Shown here: positions 387 to 18,896 of the stretch, piece by piece
Position numbering within the stretch: position 1 is the stretch's first letter
Layout of the letters: the number at the start of each line of letters is the position of its first letter
Assembly (NCBI GenBank): GCA_965218435.1
Contig: CBDCKW010000009.1
Coordinates: forward strand, 128,001 to 192,000
Source of the DNA: Truepera sp.
GTDB taxonomy: Bacteria; Deinococcota; Deinococci; Deinococcales; Trueperaceae
Length of the DNA: 64,000 bases
Direction of reading: 5' to 3'
Made by a program: the position numbers and the translations under genes
Notes under the pieces: model-generated
Database searches by the model: none
What the model saw: the letters and a program-made list of their open reading frames with translations, nothing else
Told to the model about the DNA's origin: nothing

Positions 387-536
387 CCCAAATCTTACAT
401 GAACATACCACTCTAGCCATTCTACGGGCGGGCTGTCCCCGCTATGATCGTCCAATCAACTACGAATAGGCGTCTGCACTATTGCCCGACACTCTACCAA
501 AACGGCGATACAGCGCCCTTCTTGAGGAGGTCAGCC

Positions 537-1457
537 ATGGTGACCGAACCGACACATTTGGAACGTCCGTTAACGAGTAACGGTACGCCGCTTGACCTGT
601 CGCCCAAACGCTTGGGGCAACTCGAGCCCAGCGACCCCGCGACGCCTATCTCGGAGCTGAGAGCGCAGTATGAAAGGCAAGGCTACCTCTGGCTCAAACG
701 GTTTTTCGAACCGCACGACATTAGGGCGTTTAGAGAGCGGTTTTTCTCCGCGTTTGCGGACTTGGAACTGCTGGCCGCCGGAACGCAGCCCGCTGAGGGT
801 ATCTATTCAGGCCGAGACATCAGCGCGAGCGTAACCAACAAAGTGTTAATGGAGTTTGTCCGTACCGCCGCTTACGAGTCGTTTTGCTTGCAGCCAAAAC
901 TGTGGCAGTTTTACGATGCTTTTTTATGGGGGCCGTCGTACCTACATAAACGTAAAATCATCCGCTACACCACACCTGCTACGCCCGAAACGGCCCGCTC
1001 GACCGGTGCGCATTACGACCTTATCTACCTGCGCTCGGGCACCGACCGGGTGTGCTCGAGCTGGATTCCACTCGGTGACGTTCCTGTAGCGATGGGCGGC
1101 CTGGTGTACCTCGAGGGTTCGGACGCGCTAGGCCGAAAGATGGAAGCCGACTCCAGCCGCCGCAACAAGGACTTGCCACGCGCTGAACAGATCAGCGCCT
1201 ACAACAAAAATATGGGCAAAGGCTGGCTTTCGAAAGACTTGCGCTCACTCGCCGAAAAAGCCGACGGGCGCTGGCTCATGGCCGACTACGAAGCGGGCGA
1301 TATGGTCGTTCACAGCGCCTATATGATTCACGCCGCGACCGACAACACCGACCCGGCGGGGCGGATGCGGCTGTCGACCGACATTCGTTACCAGAACGTC
1401 CGCGATGAGATTGACGCCCGCTGGGAAAACCATTGGACGTTAGGGGACATGTTGTAG
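537..1457 (+). CDS. Phytanoyl-CoA dioxygenase (PhyH)-family Fe(II)/2-oxoglutarate dioxygenase
   Basis: HxD (AHYD), distal His (MIHAA), RLSTDIRY; SD GAGGAGG before ATG 537. Confidence 0.85.
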   Translation: MVTEPTHLERPLTSNGTPLDLSPKRLGQLEPSDPATPISELRAQYERQGYLWLKRFFEPHDIRAFRERFFSAFADLELLAAGTQPAEGIYSGRDISASVTNKVLMEFVRTAAYESFCLQPKLWQFYDAFLWGPSYLHKRKIIRYTTPATPETARSTGAHYDLIYLRSGTDRVCSSWIPLGDVPVAMGGLVYLEGSDALGRKMEADSSRRNKDLPRAEQISAYNKNMGKGWLSKDLRSLAEKADGRWLMADYEAGDMVVHSAYMIHAATDNTDPAGRMRLSTDIRYQNVRDEIDARWENHWTLGDML

Positions 1458-1520
1458 CGAATTTGCTCAAGATAAGTGACCGCAAAGTTTTAGGTATCGC
1501 CCTTTAAAGGAGGAAACACC

Positions 1521-2906
1521 ATGACCAAAGACGCCGCAACAAAACCCTTTCTTCAGCACCTGGCTACGATCTCGAGTTCTACGATTTCGCGCCGCACCTT
1601 TTTGAAGCTGACCGGAGCGACGGGCGCAGCGGCGGCACTCGGGAGCCTGACCCCGGTCGGGTTTGCCCAGGAACCGGTGACACTGACCTATTGGCACGGT
1701 TGGACGGGCGAATGGGAGAAGATGGTGCAGTTCGTCGTCGATATGTTTCACGAACAGCAAGACCGGATTCGTGTCAATCCGGTGGTCGTCCCCCAAGATC
1801 AACTCTTGGCGAAGCTGAGCGCGGCGATTGCTGCGGGTAATCCGCCGGATATTACGACGCTGTTCGGTTCTACGGCAATTCCGACCCTTGCCCGTCAAGG
1901 TGCGATTATGGCGCTCGAGGACGTTGGCGGCGTTGATTTAGCGGCGGCGCAGGCGTGGTTCGACCCGGACATCTACAAGCTCGGTCAGTTTGAAAATAAA
2001 ACCTATGGCCTTTCGTATTGGGCCGGTGATTTTGCGCTGCTCTACAACAAGGCGCACTTTGAGGCGGCGGGGCTCGACCCGGACAAAGGCCCGACGACGA
2101 TCGCCGAACTCGACGCCTACGCCGAAAAACTGACTGTCAAAGACGGCGATAAAATCACTCGGCTGGGCTTCTTACCCAACGATTTATGGCTCTGGGGAAC
2201 CGTTTACGGGGGCAGCTTTTACAACGCCGAAACCGGGCAGGTCACGGCGAACGATCCGGGCGTTGTCGAGGCGCTCGCTTGGATTCGCTCATACCCTGAA
2301 AAGTACGGCGCGCGGGAAGTGGCGGCGTTTCAGTCAGGGCTCTCGAGCGAGCGAGCGCAAAACCTCGACCCGTTTATCGCAGGCAAATATTCGATGCAGA
2401 TTCAAGGCCCGTGGAAGCTCGGCGATATCCGCAACTTCGGTCAAGATGTGCAGTACGGGGTAGTTGCGCCGCCCGTTCCCGAAACCGGGATGCCCAAAGC
2501 CAACTGGACGTGGGGCGACATCCAGATCATCCCGACCGGCAGCAAAGACCCTGCCGCCGCCGCCGAGTTCGTGCTGTTTACCGGTGGTGTGAATGATCCC
2601 AAAGGCTACGTCAAGCGTGTGACCTGGGGTGACCGACCCATTAACGTACCCGTATCTAAAAAAGTCATCGAGAATCCGGCCTTTCAAAAGGTGGTCAGCG
2701 AATACCCTGGGTTTGATACCTTTGTCGAGGCACTCCTGAGCGCCGAGCGGGTGGGTTCGCCCCCGGTGATGGCGGCGGCTGCCTTTTACGCCGAGCGCAT
2801 GACGGCGATGCTCGAGCGCGTGATGCTCTTACAGCTCGAGCCCCAAGCCGCTTTAGACGGCCTGACCGACGAGGTTCAGCGTCAACTTCAGGCTATGGGC
2901 GGCTAG
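1521..2906 (+). CDS. Sugar ABC transporter substrate-binding protein (CUT1), Tat-exported
   Basis: Tat motif SRRTFLK, LTYWHGW, AGNPPD, LLYNK motifs; SD AGGAGG. Confidence 0.9.
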   Translation: MTKDAATKPFLQHLATISSSTISRRTFLKLTGATGAAAALGSLTPVGFAQEPVTLTYWHGWTGEWEKMVQFVVDMFHEQQDRIRVNPVVVPQDQLLAKLSAAIAAGNPPDITTLFGSTAIPTLARQGAIMALEDVGGVDLAAAQAWFDPDIYKLGQFENKTYGLSYWAGDFALLYNKAHFEAAGLDPDKGPTTIAELDAYAEKLTVKDGDKITRLGFLPNDLWLWGTVYGGSFYNAETGQVTANDPGVVEALAWIRSYPEKYGAREVAAFQSGLSSERAQNLDPFIAGKYSMQIQGPWKLGDIRNFGQDVQYGVVAPPVPETGMPKANWTWGDIQIIPTGSKDPAAAAEFVLFTGGVNDPKGYVKRVTWGDRPINVPVSKKVIENPAFQKVVSEYPGFDTFVEALLSAERVGSPPVMAAAAFYAERMTAMLERVMLLQLEPQAALDGLTDEVQRQLQAMGG

Positions 2907-2918
2907 GCAAAAGGCTTC

Positions 2919-3812
2919 ATGGCCCTTTCCGATTACCGTTCAGCACAGCGTTCAAACCGGGTGGCGGGTCGCCGGGAAGCGCGGACCCGCCGCGCCGTCC
3001 GCCGCCTGTTTCGTCACCTGTTTCTTATCGCACTCAGCTTATTGTTTCTCGCACCGTTCGTGTGGATGGTCTCGACTTCGTTCAAGACGAACGCGCAAGT
3101 GGTCGAGTGGCCCCCACGGTGGCTGCCGAACCCACTGCACCCGGCAAATTATCCTGGCGTGTTCGCGTCAATTCCGCTCTTGACCTACGCGAAAAACACG
3201 CTGATCGTCACCTCGCTCAGCGTCATCGGCGCGGTCGTCTCGAATTCAGTGATCGCTTACGGCTTTGCGCGTATCCGCTGGCCCGGACGAGACGTACTTT
3301 TTATCATCACCTTAGGCACCTTGATGCTCCCCTTTCAGGTGACGATGATCCCGCTGTTCATCATGTTTTCAAAGATGGGCTGGGTCAACACGTTTCTGCC
3401 GCTGATCGTCCCGGCGTTTCTGGGCAACGCCTTCTACATCTTTTTACTCCGGCAGGTCTACTTGGGGATTTCGGAGGAGTTCTCCGAAGCGGCGCGGATC
3501 GAGGGCGCGTCGGATTTGCATATCCTCTGGCACATCATCGTGCCGCTGGCGCGTCCGGCCCTTTTAAGCGTCGCGCTCTTTCAGTACCTTGCGTCGTGGA
3601 ACGACTTTTTAGGGCCGCTCTTATACCTTAACGACGCCTCGAAGTTCACCCTGGCGCTGGGACTCGCCAACATGCAGTCGGCGCTCGGATTATCCGACTT
3701 CGGGCAGATTATGGCCGCTGCAACGATGATCGTGCTGCCGGTCATTGGGGTCTTTATGTTTACGCAGCGGTACTTTCTCGAGGGCATCGCCGCGTCGGGG
3801 CTTAAAGGCTAA
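2919..3812 (+). CDS. Carbohydrate ABC permease (MalG-like)
   Basis: EAA loop EAARIEGAS, WNDFLGPL, transmembrane segments. Confidence 0.9.
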   Translation: MALSDYRSAQRSNRVAGRREARTRRAVRRLFRHLFLIALSLLFLAPFVWMVSTSFKTNAQVVEWPPRWLPNPLHPANYPGVFASIPLLTYAKNTLIVTSLSVIGAVVSNSVIAYGFARIRWPGRDVLFIITLGTLMLPFQVTMIPLFIMFSKMGWVNTFLPLIVPAFLGNAFYIFLLRQVYLGISEEFSEAARIEGASDLHILWHIIVPLARPALLSVALFQYLASWNDFLGPLLYLNDASKFTLALGLANMQSALGLSDFGQIMAAATMIVLPVIGVFMFTQRYFLEGIAASGLKG

Positions 3813-4717
3813 TGGCAATCGTCACCAAAAAACGCACCTCACGGGCGCAGCGATGGGCCTTGATTCGTGGCCTTGCCTTTGTCAGCCCCTGGCTTGTTGG
3901 GCTCTGCTGGTTTTATATCTATCCCTTTTTCGCCTCGCTCTACTACAGCTTTCGCAACACCACCCCGTTTTCTGCCGGAACGTTTTTAGGGCTCGAGAAT
4001 TACCGCTTACTCGTCAGCGATCCGCTTTTTTGGCGCTCGCTGCTTAACACCTTTTACTTTACGGGCGTTTCCGTCATTTTAGGCAACTTGTTTGCCCTAG
4101 CCCTGGCGCTGCTCTTAAGTCAGCGGCTGCGCGGGATGACCTTTTACCGCACCATCTTTTACCTGCCGAGCATCGTGCCGTTTGTAGCGGTCTCGGTCGT
4201 CTGGATTTGGATTTTGCATCCGCAGTACGGGATTGTCAATTACGCGCTCGAGCGGCTCGGTTTGCCCGCTTTAGGTTGGTTTAGCGATCCCAACTGGGCG
4301 ATGCCCGGTCTTATCTTGGTAAGTCTATGGAGCACCGGCAACATGATGGTCATCTATCTGGCGGGGCTGCTCGACGTACCTAGAGAATTACACGAGGCGG
4401 CGACGATTGACGGCGCGTCGGCGTGGCAACGGACGCTCCGAATTACCATTCCGCTGCTGACGCCGATCATTCTTTTCAACGTCATTATCGGGCTGATCGG
4501 CGGCTTTCAGTATTTTATTCAGCCCTACATCATCACCCAAGGTGGTCCGGCGGATTCGACCTTGGTTTACGCGCTTTACCTCTATCAGAACGCGTTTTCT
4601 TACTTTCGGATGGGTTACGCCTCGGCGATGGCCTGGGTGCTCTTCGTCGTGATCATGATCGTGACGCTGCTGGTGTTTCGCTCGTCGGGGCGTTGGGTTT
4701 TTTACCGGAACCGCTGA
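3812..4717 (+). CDS. Carbohydrate ABC permease (MalF-like)
   Basis: FLGLENY, EAATIDGAS, MGYASAMAW; TAATG overlap with previous gene. Confidence 0.9.
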   Translation: MAIVTKKRTSRAQRWALIRGLAFVSPWLVGLCWFYIYPFFASLYYSFRNTTPFSAGTFLGLENYRLLVSDPLFWRSLLNTFYFTGVSVILGNLFALALALLLSQRLRGMTFYRTIFYLPSIVPFVAVSVVWIWILHPQYGIVNYALERLGLPALGWFSDPNWAMPGLILVSLWSTGNMMVIYLAGLLDVPRELHEAATIDGASAWQRTLRITIPLLTPIILFNVIIGLIGGFQYFIQPYIITQGGPADSTLVYALYLYQNAFSYFRMGYASAMAWVLFVVIMIVTLLVFRSSGRWVFYRNR

Positions 4718-5009: not shown

Positions 5010-6350
5010 CTACCGAACGACTTTTAGAAACGCTTCGATGTCAAGTCCACCTTTGCCGATCCCGTTTTTGTAAGCTTTGTTTTGACCGTTGCCGTAAAGG
5101 TCGTCTGTTTGTTCCATCAGTACGTCAGCGAGCCTGCTGCGGTCTACGTTGAGGGACTCGCCGAGAGCAAGCGCCAGCGCCCCTGAAGCCATCGGTGCGG
5201 CCTGCGAGGTGCCCGTCCAGGCGGCTAAACTCAGTTCCGGTGCCGGACCGAAGACGCGTTCGCCCGGGGCGGCGAGTTCGACCTCTTTGCCGTAGGTGGC
5301 AAAGTCCGACTTCGCGCCCGCCAGCGTGATACTCGTAACGCTGGTGCGCAGACGTCCGGCCTTACCATTGGCTTTTGAAGCGGGGAAGGTCACCTCTTTG
5401 TTGCCGGTGTTGCCGCTCGAGGCAACCACAAACACTCCCTGCTTATTGGCCCACTTGATGGCTTCGTCGACGGCTTTGATATCTTTGTCGCTGCCGAGTG
5501 AAAGGTTGATGATGTCAGCACCTTGGTCTGTCGCCCACTGGATGGCCGCAGTGAGGTGCGCCACGTCGCCCGAACCGTCAGGACGGAGCACCCGGATAGG
5601 CAAGATCGTCGCGCGCGGCGCAACTTGGCGGATGATGCCCGCGACGTTGGTGCCGTGCCCATAACCGTCGGCGCTTAGGTTTCCCTCTTCTCGAGGCAAA
5701 TTGTCGTTGTCTACAAAATCCTTCCATTCCGCAGCCGGTGCAAGCGCCTCTGCCAGCGCCGGGTGCGCCAGGTCAATCCCGGTGTCGATCACCGCGACCT
5801 TGACGTTATAGCCCAGGTTTTTGGCGAGCGTCTGGCCTTGCTCGAGGTGCACCCGTTGCCAAATCGCCGTGTTTTCCGGCATCCAGAGATACTGACCGTT
5901 CGACCACAGCTCAGCTCCGCCTCCTGCCCAAGTGCGCGACCTGCCACCGGCCCAGGTACGCGACCTGCCGCCAGCCCAAGTGCGTGAGCGCCCGTCCATC
6001 CAGGCGACCTCGCCCCCCGCTAAAAAGGCGTTGCGGCTCTCCTCGAGGGTCAGGTTCGCCCATTCGTCACTCGTGGCGTCGGCTTGGACGCTCAAGGCGC
6101 TGTCAAGCCCGACCACGGCGTAGACACCTGGCTGCCAGACGACGATCTCGCCGCCGTAACGCCTTTCGATGTTGGCGCGCGTGTCGCTCGGCTTAAGCGT
6201 CACGGTCAGCACGTAGTCGGGCCGCGCTGTAGCCGTGCGCGTCGCGGCCGGTGCCGAGGTCTGACAACCGGTCATGAACAGTAAGAGTGTGGCCGCAAGC
6301 AGATAATAGTTCCTCCGGCCGTAACGAAGACGTAATAGATGAAGTTTCAC
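5010..6350 (-). CDS. S8 subtilisin-like serine peptidase, lipoprotein, with octapeptide repeats
   Basis: Triad motifs VIDTG, HGTNVAG, GTSQAAP; oxyanion SGN; lipobox MTG-C; SD TAAGGAG before GTG. Confidence 0.9.
   Translation of the reverse strand: MKLHLLRLRYGRRNYYLLAATLLLFMTGCQTSAPAATRTATARPDYVLTVTLKPSDTRANIERRYGGEIVVWQPGVYAVVGLDSALSVQADATSDEWANLTLEESRNAFLAGGEVAWMDGRSRTWAGGRSRTWAGGRSRTWAGGGAELWSNGQYLWMPENTAIWQRVHLEQGQTLAKNLGYNVKVAVIDTGIDLAHPALAEALAPAAEWKDFVDNDNLPREEGNLSADGYGHGTNVAGIIRQVAPRATILPIRVLRPDGSGDVAHLTAAIQWATDQGADIINLSLGSDKDIKAVDEAIKWANKQGVFVVASSGNTGNKEVTFPASKANGKAGRLRTSVTSITLAGAKSDFATYGKEVELAAPGERVFGPAPELSLAAWTGTSQAAPMASGALALALGESLNVDRSRLADVLMEQTDDLYGNGQNKAYKNGIGKGGLDIEAFLKVVR
5922..5993 (-). 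repeat. 3 x 24-bp coding tandem repeat (GRSRTWAG)3
   Basis: ggg cgc tca cgc act tgg gct ggc / ggc agg tcg cgt acc tgg gcc ggt / ggc agg tcg cgc act tgg gca gga; differences are synonymous only. Confidence 0.95.
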
Positions 6351-6406
6351 TTCTCACTCCTTAGGTGTTACTAACGGGTAAGCCTGTCCCCCCGTAGCAC
6401 ACCGAA

Positions 6407-6450
6407 AGTCTAAAGTGAAAAGCCTGACGAAATTCTTACTTTCTGCTGAC
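6407..6450 (-). promoter_or_regulatory. Peptidase promoter with three 11-bp-phased boxes and -10
   Basis: + strand CTGAC 6424, CTTAC 6435, CTGAC 6446; -10 TAGACT (6412-6407) 11 nt beyond the proximal box. Confidence 0.7.
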
Positions 6451-6566
6451 CGGCGTAAAGCTCTAAACGAAGCTGGCTGCGACGCCGTTTAGGTCAGCGT
6501 GCCCCTTTACGTTCCGGGCTCCTTTATAAAGATCGTTGCCCTTCTTCGAACCCGAGCTGCTGAGTT

Positions 6567-6599
6567 GTAAGAGTTTTGTCAGTCGGTGTTGTTTAGCGT
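6567..6599 (+). promoter_or_regulatory. TPR-HD-GYP-GGDEF promoter with tandem boxes and -10
   Basis: GTAAG 6567, GTCAG 6578, 11-nt gap, TAGCGT 6594-6599. Confidence 0.7.
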
Positions 6600-6708
6600 A
6601 GGGTGCGGCTCACGTTTTGAACCGCAAAACTTACCGACCTGGGGATTCTGATGTGGCAGCGCGGCAGTCTAGACCAAAAATGTATCCGGGGCTCCGTCAG
6701 GGGCGATT

Positions 6709-9147
6709 ATGTCTTATGAACCGCTCGGTTTAGTGCCTACAACCGTTGCCGACAAGTCGGCGTCGGTGGCGCACGAGGCGGCACAACTGCTTAGGGCAGC
6801 TTTGGCGGCAGGCCGAACATGCCGTGAGCTCGGCGACTTTGAAAGCGCCGCGGCGCAGTTTTCTACGGCGCTTGCCTTAGCCAAACAGCTGGACGACGCC
6901 GGAGCCGAGTCTGACACCCTTAACCTGCAAGCTGGCCTGTGGAGTACGATGGGCGACACGCCGCGGGCGCTGGAAGCTCTGGAGCGTGCGCTCGAGCTGG
7001 TTCAAGCCCCGCAGTTCAGGGACCGTCAAGCCAACATCTTAAACAACATGGGCACGTTACATACAGTGCTCGGCAATTATCCGCAAGCCCTGGAACACCT
7101 TAAACACGCCCACGACCTTTTGCGCACGGTCGCCCCAACGTCCCGGAGTTCGGCTAGCAACCTGACCAATCTAGGGAGTTTATATCAGGAGCTAGGTGAC
7201 CCGGCTGAAGCCAAGAGGTTTTTTACCCAAGCTGCCGAGGTCGCGCAAGAGGCCGCTGAACCTCTGATGGCTGCAGCCGCTCTGAATAACCTGGCTTACA
7301 CCCACGCCGACGCCGGGGAGTGGCCGCTAGCCAAGGGTTATTTTCAAAAGGCGCTGACGATCAGTCAGGAGGCGGGGGCGAAAGAGTACGAAATCGATAA
7401 CCTCGACGGCCTGGGACAGGTCTACGCCGCTTTAGGCGAGGCTGACCAAGCTAAAAAGACCCATGAGGCTGTTTTAAGAAAAGCCAGGGACATCGGTTAC
7501 CTAGAAGGTGACGCGCTGCTCAACTTGGGGCGAAACTATCTGGCTCGGCAGCCTTTAGCGGCGCTCGAGTTTTTACATCAGGGTCTTCGGGTTGCTCAGC
7601 AGCTGGGGCGCTCCGTCGCCGTGTACGAAGCGCACGACCTCCTGGCCAAAGCGTATGAAGGCACAGGCGACTTTGCCAGCGCCCTCTTTCATCAGCGGGC
7701 CTATCAAACAGCGGAAAAAGCCGTTTACAACGAAGAGAACGAACGTCAAGCGCGCAGGCTCACCACTCAGTTCGACCTCGAGCGGGCGCGCCGCGAAGCC
7801 GAAGAGTACCGCCTCCGCAACGAGATCACCCAGCAAGCCCGGGACGACGCCGAGGCGACGGTGCGTGAGCGCACACGTGAGCTTGAAGAGGCGCAGCTCG
7901 AGATCGTCACGCGCCTCGCCGTCGCTGCCGAATACCGCGACGACAACACCGGCGAACACACCCGGCGGGTCGGCCGCAACGCCGCTGCGATTGCCCACGC
8001 CCTCGGCTGGCCGGAAGACGAGGTGCAGCTTCTTTTTACCGCTGCCAGACTTCACGACGTCGGCAAGATTGCGATCAGCGACCTTATTTTGCACAAACCG
8101 GGAAAGCTTACACCCGAAGAGCTCGCCCTGATGAAAACCCACGCCATGATCGGGGCGCGTATCTTGTCCGGTGGCCGCTCACCGCTTTTGCAGCTGGCTG
8201 AAGAGATCGCGCTGGCCCACCACGAACGCTGGGACGGTAAGGGCTACCCGCTGGGACTTTCGGGTGACGCCATTCCGCTGGCTGCCCGGATCGTAGCTGT
8301 TGCCGATGTGCTCGACGCCCTGACGCACGAGCGCCCCTACAAACGGCCGTGGCCGGTCGAGGAAGCGTTAGCTGAGATCGGTCGGCAGAGCGGCCATCAC
8401 TTCGAACCGCACGTCGTAAAGGCGTGCTTCGCGGCTTTCGGTCCGGGTCGCGCACTTTCTCCCACCGACGACCCGGCAGCTTGGCGCGGCACCGTTCAGT
8501 TCTCGGCCGGACCGTCTGCCCCGGCTGCGCCCTATCAAGCTTTGGAAACTGTGAGCTCGGTTGAGCGACTGAAAAAACTCCTGGCCAAAGCGGTTCAAGA
8601 CCTCGAGCTCAGTCGCCACGAGGCGCGAGCCGTGTCCCGGCAGATGCACGAGATGGCGTTCTCCGATCCCTTGACAGGGCTGTATAACCGCCGCGCGTTC
8701 AGGGCCGACCTCGAGGCCGAGACGTCGCGCGCCCTGCATCAGGGCGACACTTTAAGCGTGCTTAACTTAGACCTCGACTTGCTCAAGCAGGTCAACGATA
8801 CCGAGGGGCACGAGCGTGGTGACGCGCTGCTGCGCAGCTTTGCCGAGGCGGCGAGCAAACAGCTGCAGCCGTGGGGCAGGCTCTACCGTGTCGGGGGCGA
8901 CGAGTTCGCGGCGATTCTCTCCCATACCAGCACGCAGCACTTCGGCGCGGTTCGCGCGCAGCTGGAGAGGGCGGTAGCCGAGGTTCGTGCGGACGGCTTT
9001 GCCGGCGCGGGGGTCAGCTTAGGGATCGTGGCGTTTCCCGAAGAGGTCGCGACCACCGGGGATTTGGTCCGTCTCAGCGACCAACGCATGTATGAAGACA
9101 AGCTTAAACGGCGAAAAATGCGGCAGGGGTTACAGCCTGCTGAATAA
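6709..9147 (+). CDS. TPR + HD-GYP + GGDEF c-di-GMP signalling protein
   Basis: N-terminal TPRs (ILNNMG, LTNLG, ALNNLA, LLNLG); LHDVGK and HHERWDGKGYP; DPLTGLYNRR...RVGGDEF; no transmembrane segment. Confidence 0.92.
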   Translation: MSYEPLGLVPTTVADKSASVAHEAAQLLRAALAAGRTCRELGDFESAAAQFSTALALAKQLDDAGAESDTLNLQAGLWSTMGDTPRALEALERALELVQAPQFRDRQANILNNMGTLHTVLGNYPQALEHLKHAHDLLRTVAPTSRSSASNLTNLGSLYQELGDPAEAKRFFTQAAEVAQEAAEPLMAAAALNNLAYTHADAGEWPLAKGYFQKALTISQEAGAKEYEIDNLDGLGQVYAALGEADQAKKTHEAVLRKARDIGYLEGDALLNLGRNYLARQPLAALEFLHQGLRVAQQLGRSVAVYEAHDLLAKAYEGTGDFASALFHQRAYQTAEKAVYNEENERQARRLTTQFDLERARREAEEYRLRNEITQQARDDAEATVRERTRELEEAQLEIVTRLAVAAEYRDDNTGEHTRRVGRNAAAIAHALGWPEDEVQLLFTAARLHDVGKIAISDLILHKPGKLTPEELALMKTHAMIGARILSGGRSPLLQLAEEIALAHHERWDGKGYPLGLSGDAIPLAARIVAVADVLDALTHERPYKRPWPVEEALAEIGRQSGHHFEPHVVKACFAAFGPGRALSPTDDPAAWRGTVQFSAGPSAPAAPYQALETVSSVERLKKLLAKAVQDLELSRHEARAVSRQMHEMAFSDPLTGLYNRRAFRADLEAETSRALHQGDTLSVLNLDLDLLKQVNDTEGHERGDALLRSFAEAASKQLQPWGRLYRVGGDEFAAILSHTSTQHFGAVRAQLERAVAEVRADGFAGAGVSLGIVAFPEEVATTGDLVRLSDQRMYEDKLKRRKMRQGLQPAE

Positions 9148-10070: not shown

Positions 10071-10119
10071 TCAAGCTCACATTAAGCTCCACAGTTAAGA
10101 CAACAGTTAAGACCACAGT
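10071..10119. repeat. Degenerate ~12-bp tandem repeat in nnr-thrB spacer
   Basis: ttaagctccacag / ttaagacaacag / ttaagaccacag. Confidence 0.6.
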
Positions 10120-12222: not shown

Positions 12223-12846
12223 GTGGGCAGAAGCCGGATTAGTAAACGTCGAGGGACGAACCAAAGCGGTAAGACGCCGTCCCCCAAGGGCCGCTCGAGC
12301 CTCGGCTCGGACAAAACGCACCAGACTGCTGTCGTGATCGTTCCGCCTAAAGCTGTTTGGGAACCTATTCAAGAGATTCGCAGCGTACATGACAAGCAGT
12401 TTCGGCGCTGGCTGCCGCACCTCACGCTGCTCTATCCGTTCGCGCCCAAAGAAGACTTTACCCGCCTACTGCCCGACCTCGCACAGGCGGCGTGGGCAGA
12501 GAGGCCGTTTGAGCTGACGCTGGCGCACTTCAGCTCGTTTCGGCACGGGCGAGACTATACGGTGTGGTTGGAACCGACCCCTGCCGCGCCCCTCCAAAAA
12601 CTGCACCGAACACTGACGAAAGCCTTACCGCACTTTGGCGACACCGGTTCGTTTCAGGGCGGCTTTACGCCGCACCTCAGCGTCGGGCAAGTCGAGGGCG
12701 CAGGCAACCTTAAGAAGCTCTTGGCTGAATTAAGTGAGGGCTGGGAACCGCTCCGCTTTACGGTGGGCGAAGTCTCGCTGATTTCGCGCAAAAGCCCACC
12801 GAACGACATCTTTCAGATTGACCGGCAGATTACGTTGGGGGGCTAG
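12223..12846 (+). CDS. 2H phosphoesterase (2'-5' RNA ligase family)
   Basis: Two HxT/S motifs PHLTL and PHLSV; leaderless -10 TAGACT 6 nt before GTG. Confidence 0.85.
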   Translation: MGRSRISKRRGTNQSGKTPSPKGRSSLGSDKTHQTAVVIVPPKAVWEPIQEIRSVHDKQFRRWLPHLTLLYPFAPKEDFTRLLPDLAQAAWAERPFELTLAHFSSFRHGRDYTVWLEPTPAAPLQKLHRTLTKALPHFGDTGSFQGGFTPHLSVGQVEGAGNLKKLLAELSEGWEPLRFTVGEVSLISRKSPPNDIFQIDRQITLGG

Positions 12847-15891: not shown

Positions 15892-15898
15892 CGTGTCT

Positions 15899-16390
15899 AT
15901 GACGAGGGTTCGTGCCGGGTTTACGCTTTTAGAAATGCTCATTGTTATGAGCATTATGGGCATCCTTATGGCTATAGGTATTCCTATGCTGCGCCCCCCG
16001 TCTTCATATCTTTTCGCTAACGACCTTAAAGCGATGATTTTGCAAGCGCGTTATGAAGCGATTAAACGTAATACGCCCGTCGCGGTTGTTTGGAGTAGTA
16101 CGAACCGTACCTACACCACGCGGCTCGACGCGACCAATACCACCTTTGCCAATACTAATAGTGCCTGCACAAGTAGCACAATTATCAGTACCAAGCAGCT
16201 CAGCGACTACCGAAACGTTGACATCTCAACCAATATGCCGGGAAACGGCATTGTTTGGTTACCTACAGGTTTGGCAAGAAGTTGCAGTACAGGTGTCGGA
16301 AACAGCACCACAACAATCGGTGACGGTAGGCAGACCTATAAGGTCATCACCTCAGCAGGTGGCCGAATTAGGCTCGAGAAAGCATCGTGA
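15899..16390 (+). CDS. Type IV minor pilin, FimT/GspH-like
   Basis: Prepilin site G|FTLLEMLIV; QARYEAIKRN; C-terminal GRIR. Confidence 0.85.
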   Translation: MTRVRAGFTLLEMLIVMSIMGILMAIGIPMLRPPSSYLFANDLKAMILQARYEAIKRNTPVAVVWSSTNRTYTTRLDATNTTFANTNSACTSSTIISTKQLSDYRNVDISTNMPGNGIVWLPTGLARSCSTGVGNSTTTIGDGRQTYKVITSAGGRIRLEKAS

Positions 16391-16773
16391 AGTCGTCCGC
16401 AGGCTTGACGCTGCTCGAGGTCATCGTTGCGCTGGTCGTACTGGTTGTTGGCGTTTTACTCGCCGCCACGATGCAGACGAGCGCCCTACGTGCGAGCAGT
16501 GAAGCCGCCGCTACGCAGGGCGTCACTAAATTTGCGGAGGCGGAGATCGAGCTGCGGCGGCAGCTTGACCTAAGCACGGCTGCCAGCAAAGCTGCGACCT
16601 GTATAACTTCGGTCACGTCGGGTTACACCTGTCAGGTGCAAGTGCGCGCTTGTCAGCTTTCCGGTTCTTCGCTAAGTTGTACGGGTACCGGGAGCGACGC
16701 CGATCAGGTCAAAGTTACAGTGGGTGGCCCGCGTCAGAAAACCGTCACGCTTACCACGGTTAAAGCAAGATGA
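16387..16773 (+). CDS. Type IV minor pilin, PilV-like
   Basis: G|LTLLEVIVAL; four Cys; 4-nt overlap with upstream gene. Confidence 0.8.
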   Translation: MKSSAGLTLLEVIVALVVLVVGVLLAATMQTSALRASSEAAATQGVTKFAEAEIELRRQLDLSTAASKAATCITSVTSGYTCQVQVRACQLSGSSLSCTGTGSDADQVKVTVGGPRQKTVTLTTVKAR

Positions 16774-17414
16774 AACACGCACGAAGCGCCGGTTTTACGC
16801 TGGTGGAGTTGCTTGTCGCAGGGACAATTATGCTGCTTATCCTCGGAGCTTTAGGAAACCTTTTTGTCAGCTCGAGCCGCGCTTACCGGGTCAACAACGA
16901 AGCTTCAGACCGTCAACAGACTGCTGAGGCCGCTACCCAAATGCTGACCTACGAGATTGGTCTAGCGGGCTACCGCGGGTCTGATCAAGGTGCAAGCTCC
17001 AGGGAATTTAAGACAACAGCGGTACTAGGCGTAGTTTCAGTTCCGGAAAGTACACTCATTATCACCAAGGGCGCGACCGCTACCAGCCCCGACACGGTTA
17101 CGGTTCGCTACTACGAAGACCGCTTTATTAGCTCAACCGCAAAACGTACGGCTGCTTTTACTGCCGCTAAGGATAGTGATAATGCTTATAACCTCTACCG
17201 CGCTCAAGACGGTGATAACAAGCCCGCTATCTTAGGTGTCAAAAACCTCAAAGTCGTGAAATATATTAAAAGAGACGGTACCGAAGCGACCAGCGCCACC
17301 AAAGACACCCTCGCCGCCCTTAAGCTCGAGCTCACTTTTATTGACGGACTTAAGCAGCAACTCGTTATCAGCATTCCCAACCTGCAGCAACTTCCCGTTC
17401 TTCCGACTCTTTAA
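16770..17414 (+). CDS. Type IV minor pilin, PilW-like
   Basis: G|FTLVELLVA; EIGLAGY motif. Confidence 0.85.
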   Translation: MKHARSAGFTLVELLVAGTIMLLILGALGNLFVSSSRAYRVNNEASDRQQTAEAATQMLTYEIGLAGYRGSDQGASSREFKTTAVLGVVSVPESTLIITKGATATSPDTVTVRYYEDRFISSTAKRTAAFTAAKDSDNAYNLYRAQDGDNKPAILGVKNLKVVKYIKRDGTEATSATKDTLAALKLELTFIDGLKQQLVISIPNLQQLPVLPTL

Positions 17415-17441
17415 CCCTTTACGTCGTCTCGAGAGGTCACT

Positions 17442-18896
17442 ATGAAAAAGCAAGACGGTATCGCTCTAATTGCAACACTCCTTATTATGGCCGCTATCAT
17501 GGCGCTCGGTGTGGGTACACTCTTTTTAGCCAACATGAACTTGCATATTGCTGAAAACAGCCGCACGCACGCCGTTGCTCGTTACAACGCCGAGGCGGGT
17601 TTGGAAGCGGCACTTGTCAAGTTAAAAAAAGATTATGAAGCGAGCACACCTAAGCAGTTTCCTACAACGCTGACGATGCCGAGTTCGCCAGATAGCGCCG
17701 TGACCTATCAGAACGCTGGCTACACGCCCTACACGACAGCCGGTATAAGAACGCAGGCTCGAGTCGTTATTGTCGGTACCGGCCCGAACAGCGCACGCTA
17801 CCAAACTGAGGCGCTTTTGGGGGCGGCAGCGCCTACTTCGAGCACGCCGCCGAGCTGGATGGGTCTGGTCAGTGAAAATGTTGTAGATGCGAACGGTGGC
17901 CCCACACTTACCGACGCACAGCTACACGGCAACGGCGGTTATGAGATTGCTGGTAATACAACGTTTCAGACGTGTAAAGGGGCAAAGTGCGAAGAGTTCA
18001 AAGTCTCGGACAGCCCGGTAACCGCAGCGCCCGGAATGTCTTCTTACGAATGCAAGTCCAACGGGGGTAAGAGCGAACTCTGTTTTGGAGGAAAACCCGC
18101 CAAATATTCAGATAAGCCTGTTTCTATTGGAGACATCAACCAAAAGTATCTGGACTTGCGGAACGGCACGGGAACGAGTCCGAGTAAGTTCGGCGTCAGA
18201 AGCACCGACACGCTTACAAGCAGCGCGGCGCTTACTGGCTGTACTTACAGCTTGAGTGCTACAACGACGACTAAGGGCAAAAAGACGGAAACGACGCCTG
18301 CCCAACTAGCTACGAGCTATCCCAGCGGCTCGACCGTTTGTGTCAACGGCGACGCAAACGTACCTTCTGGTGCAACCTATTCGGATGTCAAGATCATTGT
18401 CAAGGGTAGCGCGGCTATAAACGGTACCGCTACGTTTAATAACGCAAATCTTCTAAGCATGAACGTACTCGACCTTGGCGGCGACATAACGATGGCTAAC
18501 GGCAGCCGCTTGTTCGGCGATTCCCAAGTAAATTTTGCTGGCTCTGTTGCCTATAGCGGTACGGCGACGATTGCTTCAGGGGGGACAATGAACTTCACGT
18601 CAAAAGCCAAAGAAATCTATAACACCCAGTCCAACGAGGTCGGTTTAGCCGTTATCTCTGTTGGCAATTTTGACGCCCAGGGAGGATTAAAAGGCAAAAG
18701 TGAAGAGTTTGTAAACGCTGCAATCCAAGTAGGCGGCGTAGCTAATGTCAACGGGGGCGCTAAAGTTCGGGGTGGGATTAGTTCAAAAGGCAGGCTGACT
18801 ATTAAGGGGCATAGCGAGATATACGGCGACGCCGTGCTGACCAACACTGACCTCTCGAGCGCCGACCTAACTGTAGCCGCCTTAAGCCGCCGTTAG
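17442..18896 (+). CDS. PilX-like pilus tip protein with large C-terminal domain (ComZ-like position)
   Basis: G|IALIATLL lacking Glu5; ARYNAEAGLE motif; Gly/Ser/Thr-rich C-terminus. Confidence 0.75.
   Translation: MKKQDGIALIATLLIMAAIMALGVGTLFLANMNLHIAENSRTHAVARYNAEAGLEAALVKLKKDYEASTPKQFPTTLTMPSSPDSAVTYQNAGYTPYTTAGIRTQARVVIVGTGPNSARYQTEALLGAAAPTSSTPPSWMGLVSENVVDANGGPTLTDAQLHGNGGYEIAGNTTFQTCKGAKCEEFKVSDSPVTAAPGMSSYECKSNGGKSELCFGGKPAKYSDKPVSIGDINQKYLDLRNGTGTSPSKFGVRSTDTLTSSAALTGCTYSLSATTTTKGKKTETTPAQLATSYPSGSTVCVNGDANVPSGATYSDVKIIVKGSAAINGTATFNNANLLSMNVLDLGGDITMANGSRLFGDSQVNFAGSVAYSGTATIASGGTMNFTSKAKEIYNTQSNEVGLAVISVGNFDAQGGLKGKSEEFVNAAIQVGGVANVNGGAKVRGGISSKGRLTIKGHSEIYGDAVLTNTDLSSADLTVAALSRR

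Follow-up and report, generated by a model that had tools for sequence, protein, structure and literature searches.

A pair of neighbouring genes in a 64,000-nucleotide stretch of a Truepera sp. genome (GenBank assembly GCA_965218435.1, contig CBDCKW010000009.1, positions 128,001 to 192,000; hereafter the window) belongs to a module that is widespread in the phylum Deinococcota and apparently undescribed. One gene (5010..6350, minus strand) encodes a 446-residue thermitase-like S8 lipoprotein protease that carries the tandem array (GRSRTWAG)x3; the other (6709..9147, plus strand) encodes an 812-residue cytoplasmic protein in which tetratricopeptide repeats (TPRs) precede the cyclic di-GMP (c-di-GMP) domains HD-GYP and GGDEF. 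Across the family, the repeat behaves like a coded ligand that tracks the neighbouring TPR domain and not its own protease or prodomain. We consider it probable that the protease is a self-processing peptide precursor and its neighbour an intracellular TPR receptor, used between cells with a logic like that of the RRNPP systems and outside that family.

Conservation of the gene pair in Deinococcota

Of 364 Deinococcota genomes, 167 carry the protease subfamily (131 of the 263 of good quality), which is well set apart from other S8 proteases, with E values below 1e-48 within it as opposed to above 1e-30 for the others. From about 375 matches, 150 were listed and 120 regions were fetched, mainly the best-scoring and some weaker; seven further loci and the window brought the collection to 131 subfamily open reading frames (ORFs), a non-random sample. 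A TPR gene lies within 1.5 kb of 119 of these ORFs, directly downstream on the same strand in 111 cases, divergent in four and in some other arrangement in four, and 12 ORFs have none. Among 20 other S8 ORFs that served as a control (from 18 of 20 regions, since two gave no row), two have a TPR neighbour, none carries a repeat and none has a TPR neighbour fused to a c-di-GMP domain. A first-pass annotation, made from the letters of the window, had suggested a survey of such adjacency as a check on its idea of peptide signalling, and the adjacency proves to be conserved. The divergent pairing that it described is real in the window, where the genes stand 358 bp apart, but atypical for the family. 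An independent scan of 80 metagenome loci contained seven of the subfamily, all seven with the repeat and six with a TPR gene downstream, and among the parsable proteins of two protein searches, tryptophan arrays at a spacing of 7–8 residues occur in 116 of 119 from one search and in 126 of 137 from the other.

The 119 receptors differ in output: 49 have HD-GYP only, 48 have HD-GYP and GGDEF, 13 have GGDEF only and nine have neither. Five of these nine TPR-only partners were scanned and proved to be four histidine kinases and one CHAT protease; among those left unscanned, L114 is a split HD-GYP gene. Because outputs vary in this way, the sensor, namely the TPR domain, is the fixed part of these proteins, whereas the output can be exchanged. 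The same counts leave unsupported the earlier proposal of a switch between c-di-GMP synthesis and degradation.

Some related genes stand outside such pairs. Repeat-bearing S8 genes without a TPR neighbour (unit GWNSWVS) occur at L037, in three copies, and at L036, where the gene adjoins a type IV coupling protein gene and is probably part of a conjugative element. Three orphan TPR-GGDEF genes of the source genome (C4:10808-12628, C9:2270979-2272753 and C9:3084632-3086497) resemble receptors of 7-residue repeats most, and the copy at C9:2271 is apparently split into two ORFs. A search for stand-alone small precursors beside these three genes and across genome ORFs of at least 60 residues found none that was convincing.

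Architecture of the protease and the receptor

The protease was first described as an S8 lipoprotein with (GRSRTWAG)x3 between its prodomain and catalytic domain, and this description is confirmed. The translated ORF matches PF00082 (Pfam, E 3.7e-42). Its lipoprotein signal peptide (6264..6350, minus strand, as are all features of this gene) ends in the lipobox MTG-C29, a pattern that a regular expression detects in 129 of 131 subfamily members and that implies predicted export through signal peptidase II, the lipoprotein route, and not signal peptidase I. Residues 30–112 (6015..6263) form a prodomain that is I9-like by fold and closes with a conserved E-x-N-x3-F-x-x-G-G junction; its leads in the ESM Atlas were I9/S8 pro-regions, all under 0.9, and Pfam I9 gave no match in the window protease. 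The array of predicted signal peptides spans residues 120–143 (5922..5993) and is flanked by two degenerate tryptophan units, GGEVAWMD (5994-6017) and GGAELWSN (5898-5921). In the catalytic domain (5013..5882), the triad D189/H232/S382 is intact, in subtilisin order and invariant in 122 of 122 aligned members, the oxyanion asparagine N314 is kept in 119 of 122, and S311 and T321 align with the S1-pocket positions 152 and 166 of subtilisin. An AlphaFold (AF2) model built on the 122-row alignment folds the prodomain and catalytic domain confidently (predicted local distance difference test (pLDDT) 91) and leaves the array unstructured, with pLDDT values of 44-66 per 10-residue block. The top fold match of this model is the unautoprocessed, IS1-inserted pro-subtilisin E (template modelling (TM) score 0.67/0.77). 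Because the repeat is unstructured and the best match is an unautoprocessed pro-subtilisin, the array appears to sit at the maturation junction. The nearest named relative, an uncultured member of the Trueperaceae, has a protease that is 86% identical.

The receptor, assigned from Pfam matches and motifs, begins with eight LGN-type TPR units (6763..7668, plus strand, as is the rest of the gene), which match Pfam TPR_12, are modelled as helical pairs at pLDDT 96 and account for about 300 of its 812 residues. Their groove presents R36, N72, N109, N113, N154, N194, D233 and D268. Among 115 relatives, the asparagines are conserved in 107 (N72), 111 (N113), 77 (N154) and 98 (N194), the basic end of the groove (R/K36) in 89 and the acidic end in 94 (D233) and 101 (D/E268). 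The recurring asparagines noticed at first thus belong to a conserved groove ladder, but the RRNPP-specific meaning attached to them does not stand, the best sequence and fold matches being TPRs of the LGN/Pins type. A long helix or coiled-coil linker with the motif FDLERARREAE (7672..7893) leads from the TPR domain to the enzyme; the model covers the protein to about residue 384. The HD-GYP phosphodiesterase domain (7930..8415) is intact in its metal motifs HDVGK and HHERWDGKGYP, and the corresponding HD and HHExxDGxGYP motifs are both present in 82 of 97 partners. The GGDEF diguanylate cyclase domain (8656..9117) has an intact GGDEF site at residue 729 and lacks an RxxD I-site; GG[D/E]EF is intact in 45 of the 61 partners that have the domain. 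A complex predicted from the TPR alignment and protease residues 114–147 scored 0.02 (mark 0.32) and was not used either way.

Co-variation of the repeat with the TPR domain

The 116 pairs contain 102 unit types, which share the pattern x-x-x-x-W-[A/S]-[G]-G; even loci that are nearly identical often have different units. Copy number runs from one to six in the paired set and reaches about 15 in the protein P0221. Adjacent copies are residue-identical in 49 of 118 arrays, yet in all but two of these 49 (that is, in 47) the copies diverge at synonymous sites (mean proportion of synonymous differences (pS) 0.52); over all arrays, pS is 0.58, as against 0.16 for the nonsynonymous proportion (pN). 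Copies 1 and 2 of the window differ at six of seven degenerate codons and at no residue. Residue identity combined with synonymous divergence therefore points to selection on the peptide and not to recent slippage alone, with the caveat that selection against DNA-level identity could add to the synonymous divergence. In arrays of the form A-B-A (L076, L081, L083, L091, L096, L099 and others), two identical units surround a divergent one, resembling diversifying duplicated pheromones.

Peptide distance follows the distance between TPR domains. Across 96 pairs, its partial correlation is 0.36 with the TPR domain, after removal of the catalytic and HD-GYP distances, 0.005 with its own catalytic domain and −0.02 with HD-GYP. 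With one duplicate dropped (95 pairs), the value is 0.31 for the TPR domain and 0.04 for the prodomain; because the prodomain is equally divergent and adjoins the repeat in the same gene, a faster clock does not explain the tracking of the TPR domain. Length-matched subsets of 76 TPR columns gave a higher value than the prodomain in 196 draws out of 200, none of 300 label permutations reached the observed value, and the 76 fastest protease columns gave −0.08. A column-wise partial Mantel scan was noisy (groove enrichment p 0.023), and scans of the positions W-4, W-3 and W-2 for charge complementarity failed to reveal a clear partner in the groove. The co-variation of repeat and TPR that the first-pass annotation had thought worth seeking is therefore present (partial r 0.31-0.36), and at the level of single sites it is borderline once relatedness is allowed for.

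A predicted cleavage site that links the repeat, the S1 pocket and the groove

The residue two positions after the tryptophan (W+2) is Gly in about three quarters of units. For Gly at this position, two TPR groove residues, N109 and R36, rank first among 594 columns. Within the protease, T321 and S311 rank highest; their subtilisin counterparts, 166 and 152, belong to the S1 pocket, as its floor and its wall (passages of PMC5118797). Ser152 accompanies Gly in 248 of 257 cases and other residues in 66 of 111 when overlapping sets are pooled; the proportions are 92/93 and 23/31 in the first set, 13/13 and 2/23 in a separately fetched set of double-TPR loci and 57/64 and 28/42 in another protein set. 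The control position W+1 shows no association. Independent pairs on a 350-row tree, scored by the combined state of 152 and 166, changed the same way 7.3 times and the opposite way 0.7 times (median p 0.039), and a post-hoc TPR composite separates W+2 states at 77/85 and 5/29 (median p 0.031 on the S8 protease tree). From these data, whose tree-aware support is borderline, we infer that W+2 is the P1 residue and that the enzyme cuts W-A-G↓G. Because W+2 co-varies with both the S1 pocket and two groove residues, release of GRSRTWAG is predicted, and this peptide, cut after WAG, probably replaces the RSRTWA(GG) type envisaged at first.

The groove link could also arise if the TPR domain bound the repeats within the uncut, unexported precursor in the cytoplasm, acting as an export-stress sensor or chaperone without any free peptide. 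Intergenic distances are near zero in many operons, the closest structures, LGN/Pins TPRs, bind segments of larger proteins, and such binding would make an importer unnecessary. However, the repeat position that co-varies with a basic TPR residue also co-varies with the S1 pocket, and this shared W+2 position therefore fits a cleavage that creates the C terminus that the TPR domain reads. The conserved basic (R/K36) and acidic (D233, D/E268) ends of the groove would likewise suit free termini, and we regard recognition of an uncut precursor as very unlikely.

Two-protease loci and double-TPR receptors

A plasmid locus of D. deserti contains two tandem proteases, with the repeats GYNAWSS x4 and GSFG[A/V]WA[S/T/A] x5, followed by one TPR-HD-GYP-TPR-GGDEF protein. 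This double-TPR receptor gave 45 matches, of which 40 were fetched, including the query's own locus. Two tandem S8 genes bearing two different repeats are present at 12 of the 40 loci, whereas no receptor in the first set, out of 119, is accompanied by two S8 genes. In the second S8 protein the prodomain is mostly lost (86–114 residues from the lipobox Cys to the catalytic Asp, as opposed to 151–198) and the repeats are kept, which is not what a mere prodomain linker would be expected to do.

The retained repeats bear on a structural explanation, in which the array is a structural or auto-inhibitory spacer that, like the IS1 insert of pro-subtilisins, threads the active site of its own protease during maturation, and the TPR enzyme is merely co-regulated within a biofilm or dispersal regulon. 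The repeats do lie at the autoprocessing junction of a protein whose top fold match is unautoprocessed pro-subtilisin E, the S1 co-variation needs no receptor, both genes share the regulon box described below, and the 12 proteases without a TPR neighbour fit as well. A spacer would not, however, account for a variable part that tracks the TPR domain and not the protease, for copies kept identical in protein and not in DNA, for a copy number between one and six in the paired set, for repeats that persist after loss of the prodomain or for two repeat types that go with double-TPR receptors. We judge this explanation distinctly improbable and retain the peptide-precursor reading.

Upstream boxes and a candidate c-di-GMP regulon

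The box GTAAG-N6-GTCAG, an 11-bp direct repeat, precedes both genes of the pair: it lies at 6424..6439 on the minus strand, read in the direction of the protease gene, and at 6567..6582 on the plus strand before the receptor gene. The mirror-image promoter boxes reported at first are thus real, and 88% complementary, but they are not specific to the pair and belong to a genome-wide motif enriched before c-di-GMP genes. This spacing occurs 22 times in the genome, as compared with 10-14 times for other spacings, and the box stands upstream of 3 of 18 c-di-GMP genes versus 3 of 2544 other genes. When the motif is relaxed, it stands in sense orientation before 23 of 125 family proteases, with six antisense occurrences and one in coding sequence, and its neighbouring spacings were found before family proteases twice and not at all, respectively. 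The box connects these two genes with a larger c-di-GMP regulon but is no evidence for peptide signalling; the genes that carry it are a candidate for that regulon. Direct repeats of 11 bp are the pattern of OmpR/SARP-type regulators, and winged-helix and BTAD regulators flank several loci.

In the source genome, the box is also found before two other c-di-GMP genes, one a stand-alone HD-GYP gene and one a PAS-like GGDEF gene, and there are further intergenic-looking sites; its positions include C9:2850294, C9:3837892 and C9:140628 (window 12613-12628, minus strand). A 12-bp tandem repeat with TTAAG cores at window positions 10073-10119, between a homoserine-kinase-like gene and its upstream gene, is possibly a variant of this 11-12-bp box. 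Proteins with an OmpR-type winged helix and a GGDEF-like domain (two scanned) stand in operon with double-TPR receptors (L203-L217, L219 and L221-L224; for example, L204:2700-4919 and L222:8484-10307) and are possible c-di-GMP-linked transcription factors and candidate binders of the box.

Proposed mechanism

In the mechanism that we propose, the protease, with its visible lipobox, would be exported and lipid-anchored and would mature at the junction of prodomain and catalytic domain, the site of the repeats. The position of the array and its co-variation with the S1 pocket suggest a cut after W-x-P1 in each unit, which here could yield up to three GRSRTWAG peptides, and these may re-enter cells through an importer of the Opp/Dpp type. 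Within the TPR groove the peptide would lie extended, with its C terminus at R36/N109, as the co-variation suggests, its N-terminal Gly at the acidic D233/D268, a placement drawn from conservation, and the N72/N113/N154/N194 ladder between them. By analogy, a change in the shape of the TPR superhelix could pass through the coiled coil to HD-GYP activity, GGDEF activity or both and so set the c-di-GMP level. Strain-specific peptides would provide private channels between cells. The original suggestion that the protease is both precursor and processing enzyme, with its neighbour as receptor, gains from the adjacency, the co-variation with the TPR domain and with the S1 pocket, and the two-protease loci, although the site-level signal is borderline.

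The same parts could serve a single cell. A peptide cut in the periplasm and recaptured by its producer would report protease export and maturation, or the state of the envelope. The precursor is lipid-anchored and not freely secreted, the phylum has an outer layer, protease and receptor usually form one tight operon, their box is common to other c-di-GMP genes, and every co-variation result would fit such a circuit equally well. On the other hand, rapid diversification of the unit (102 types among 116 loci, differing even where the loci are closely related) is expected more of specificity between cells, and amplification to about 15 copies suits a signal that is diluted. We therefore rate a cell-autonomous role as unlikely and prefer signalling between cells.

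Several observations weigh against this preferred reading. The surveyed loci are mostly best-scoring matches and not a random sample, 12 of the 131 proteases lack a TPR neighbour, and the three related TPR(-GGDEF) genes of the source genome have neither a protease nor a small W-repeat ORF nearby. The genome encodes 16 family-5 binding proteins (SBP_bac_5), none of which ties an importer to the locus. The co-variation extends across the entire TPR domain, and the groove supplies only three of the top 15 columns: groove columns give a partial r of 0.12, as opposed to 0.23 for the other, more numerous TPR columns, and the groove value is equalled by 19 of 300 random sets of columns matched for variability. 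The Mantel permutations take no account of relatedness, and the strongest mutual-information pair (W-3 with D230) comes largely from one clade. With respect to cleavage, a protein set clustered at 90% has Ser152 in 86/87 cases with Gly and 13/15 without, with p at only 0.056; the single-site tree tests are non-significant (median p 0.25 for R36, 0.125 for N109 and 0.125 for Ser152 alone), and the significant ones are post-hoc composites, of which the TPR composite has only three usable pairs on the HD tree. Among the 40 double-TPR loci, 17 have one S8 gene and 11 have none (a few on short contigs). The two-S8 loci are close kin and therefore represent one or few independent events. No clean division into 7-mer and 8-mer classes emerged when the two TPR halves were compared with receptors of either repeat length.

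Significance

We see about an even chance that the module constitutes a new class of signalling system, in which a protease stores a pheromone as a tandem array within itself and cuts it out, and a TPR receptor of separate evolutionary origin reads the peptide and acts directly on c-di-GMP or on a kinase. Precursor, S1 pocket and groove would then co-evolve three ways, double receptors would integrate two channels, and the units would amount to a peptide language of Deinococcota. If this is so, peptide signalling would extend to a two-membrane phylum, through a protease subfamily present in 167 of 364 genomes, with direct wiring from peptide to c-di-GMP and a precursor that carries out its own maturation. 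PMC11343458 and PMC10075063 describe intracellular peptide quorum sensing for Bacillota. The D. radiodurans receptor DR_A0342 would gain a candidate ligand, and the insertion sequence (IS) by which laboratory strains differ, and which separates its sensor from its enzyme, would be a natural experiment. About 100 natural peptide–receptor pairs would become available for orthogonal signalling.

Related loci and other features of the window

At the equivalent junction, distant secreted S8 proteases have repeats of six residues (GN[I/T]WSV, GQTWSV or GRSWAI, x2-3); they occur at L234, L238, L239, L243, L245, L283 and L297, with a TPR-CHAT gene directly upstream at L239. If the module is a new class of signalling system, this group suggests that the principle reaches beyond the subfamily studied here. 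In metagenome contigs, a recurrent cassette (L246, L249, L259, L264, L270, L271, L276, L291 and L292) has the order TPR-CHAT, a 210-235-residue protein with a CxxC N terminus, which we take to be anti-sigma-like, an S8 protease without junction repeats and a short HD-GYP protein.

Elsewhere in the window, a PhyH-family dioxygenase gene and a sugar-type ABC transporter whose binding protein has a TAT signal (444-4717) are unrelated to the protease–receptor pair. The transporter (1521-4717) was considered as a peptide importer and rejected because it is of the sugar type (SBP_bac_1/8). Downstream of lepA, at 15893-18896, lies what we take to be a type IV pilin-like gene cluster, with N-terminal methylation-type motifs.

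Comparison with known systems

D. radiodurans has a member of the module (L184), with DR_A0342 as receptor and a preceding S8 gene, presumably DR_A0341, that carries a twice-repeated LGARPIWIW unit. At L184:7243-11117, an IS splits the receptor between its TPR/coiled-coil and HD-GYP-GGDEF parts, which could be a lab-selected, signal-blind allele. In its passages on this gene, PMC11219805 reports that DR_A0342 (HD-GYP and GGDEF) is split by IS2621 in ATCC 13939 laboratory strains and treats it as a c-di-GMP enzyme only, drawing no link to a protease or peptide. Expanded subtilisins and GGDEF proteins of Deinococcus are noted, with a guessed role in protein clean-up, in a passage of PMC1978522, and a TPR-GGDEF protein is mentioned without a ligand in the relevant part of PMC6895123. 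We found no description of the module in the literature covered, which leaves out most subscription papers and all supplements; the passages seen of PMC12700828 and of the preprint bioRxiv 10.1101/2021.11.05.467447 contain none on Deinococcus, and the matches that brought up PMC8779699 are KEGG pathway identifiers. A reading of the module as a ribosomally synthesized and post-translationally modified peptide system, raised by a HaaT match, was dropped: the match concerns the TPR part only and is far below the cut-off, and the neighbours that were scanned, without a systematic search, include no modifying enzyme.

Pro-subtilisins with a junction insert, namely IS1-inserted pro-subtilisin E and pro-Tk-subtilisin, share the fold of the module protease and the place of its insert, which in those enzymes helps folding. 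Theirs, in contrast, is a single insert, whereas the module has a tandem array that differs from locus to locus and goes with a sensor next door. On the receptor side, LGN/Pins (GPSM2) gives the best sequence and fold match (TM about 0.74), with eight TPRs, an asparagine ladder and, according to the titles of structure entries, extended peptides bound in the groove. LGN is nevertheless a eukaryotic scaffold for segments of large proteins, without enzyme output or protease partner, and the fold that it has in common with the module TPR shows no function. By fold, the TPR domain matches LGN (Z 31.9, root mean square deviation 3.4 Å over 314 residues) ahead of RapI (25.3), RapH (22.8), NprR (20.4) and PlcR (19.2), and Rap, NprR and PlcR rank among many generic TPRs. 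When the TPR profile was compared with PDB sequences, the best 60 of its 292 matches included no RRNPP chain, and Pfam RNPP_C has no match in the window receptor (P0002); neither absence excludes kinship.

The RRNPP(A) systems of Bacillota (Rap-Phr, NprR-NprX, PlcR-PapR and AimR-AimP, with tandemly duplicated pheromones in Rap-Phr; passages of PMC11343458, PMC10075063 and PMC9765709) are the closest in logic. Like them, the module pairs a precursor, here with predicted export, with an adjacent cytoplasmic TPR receptor, has orphan receptors and a locus-specific peptide, and repeats its unit within a precursor in identical or slightly varied form, each unit having 7-8 residues within the range of 5-10. 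RRNPP propeptides are exported by Sec and matured by extracellular proteases, and their mature peptides return through Opp to bind the receptor specifically; the module precursor, by its lipobox, would take the lipoprotein route and apparently processes itself. The eight modelled TPRs of the window receptor fall within the 5–9 expected to form a concave pocket, and the two genes are direct neighbours in 119 of 131 cases. The differences are as clear. RRNPP_detector, as set out in part of PMC10075063, expects a propeptide of 10-100 residues and a receptor of 250-500 residues, limits that would miss the module: its proposed precursor is a lipoprotein protease of 380-630 residues (446 here) with an intact active site, and its receptor has about 560-1250 residues (812 here). 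The TPR domain is N-terminal and the enzyme C-terminal, whereas RRNPP receptors have an N-terminal effector (helix-turn-helix or helix bundle) and C-terminal TPRs; the outputs are HD-GYP, GGDEF, histidine kinase or CHAT, the phylum is Deinococcota and the TPRs are LGN/TPR_12-like. Because the lengths of precursor and receptor depart from two of the five RRNPP_detector criteria and the domain order is reversed, we do not file the module under RRNPP and describe it as a system with RRNPP-like logic.

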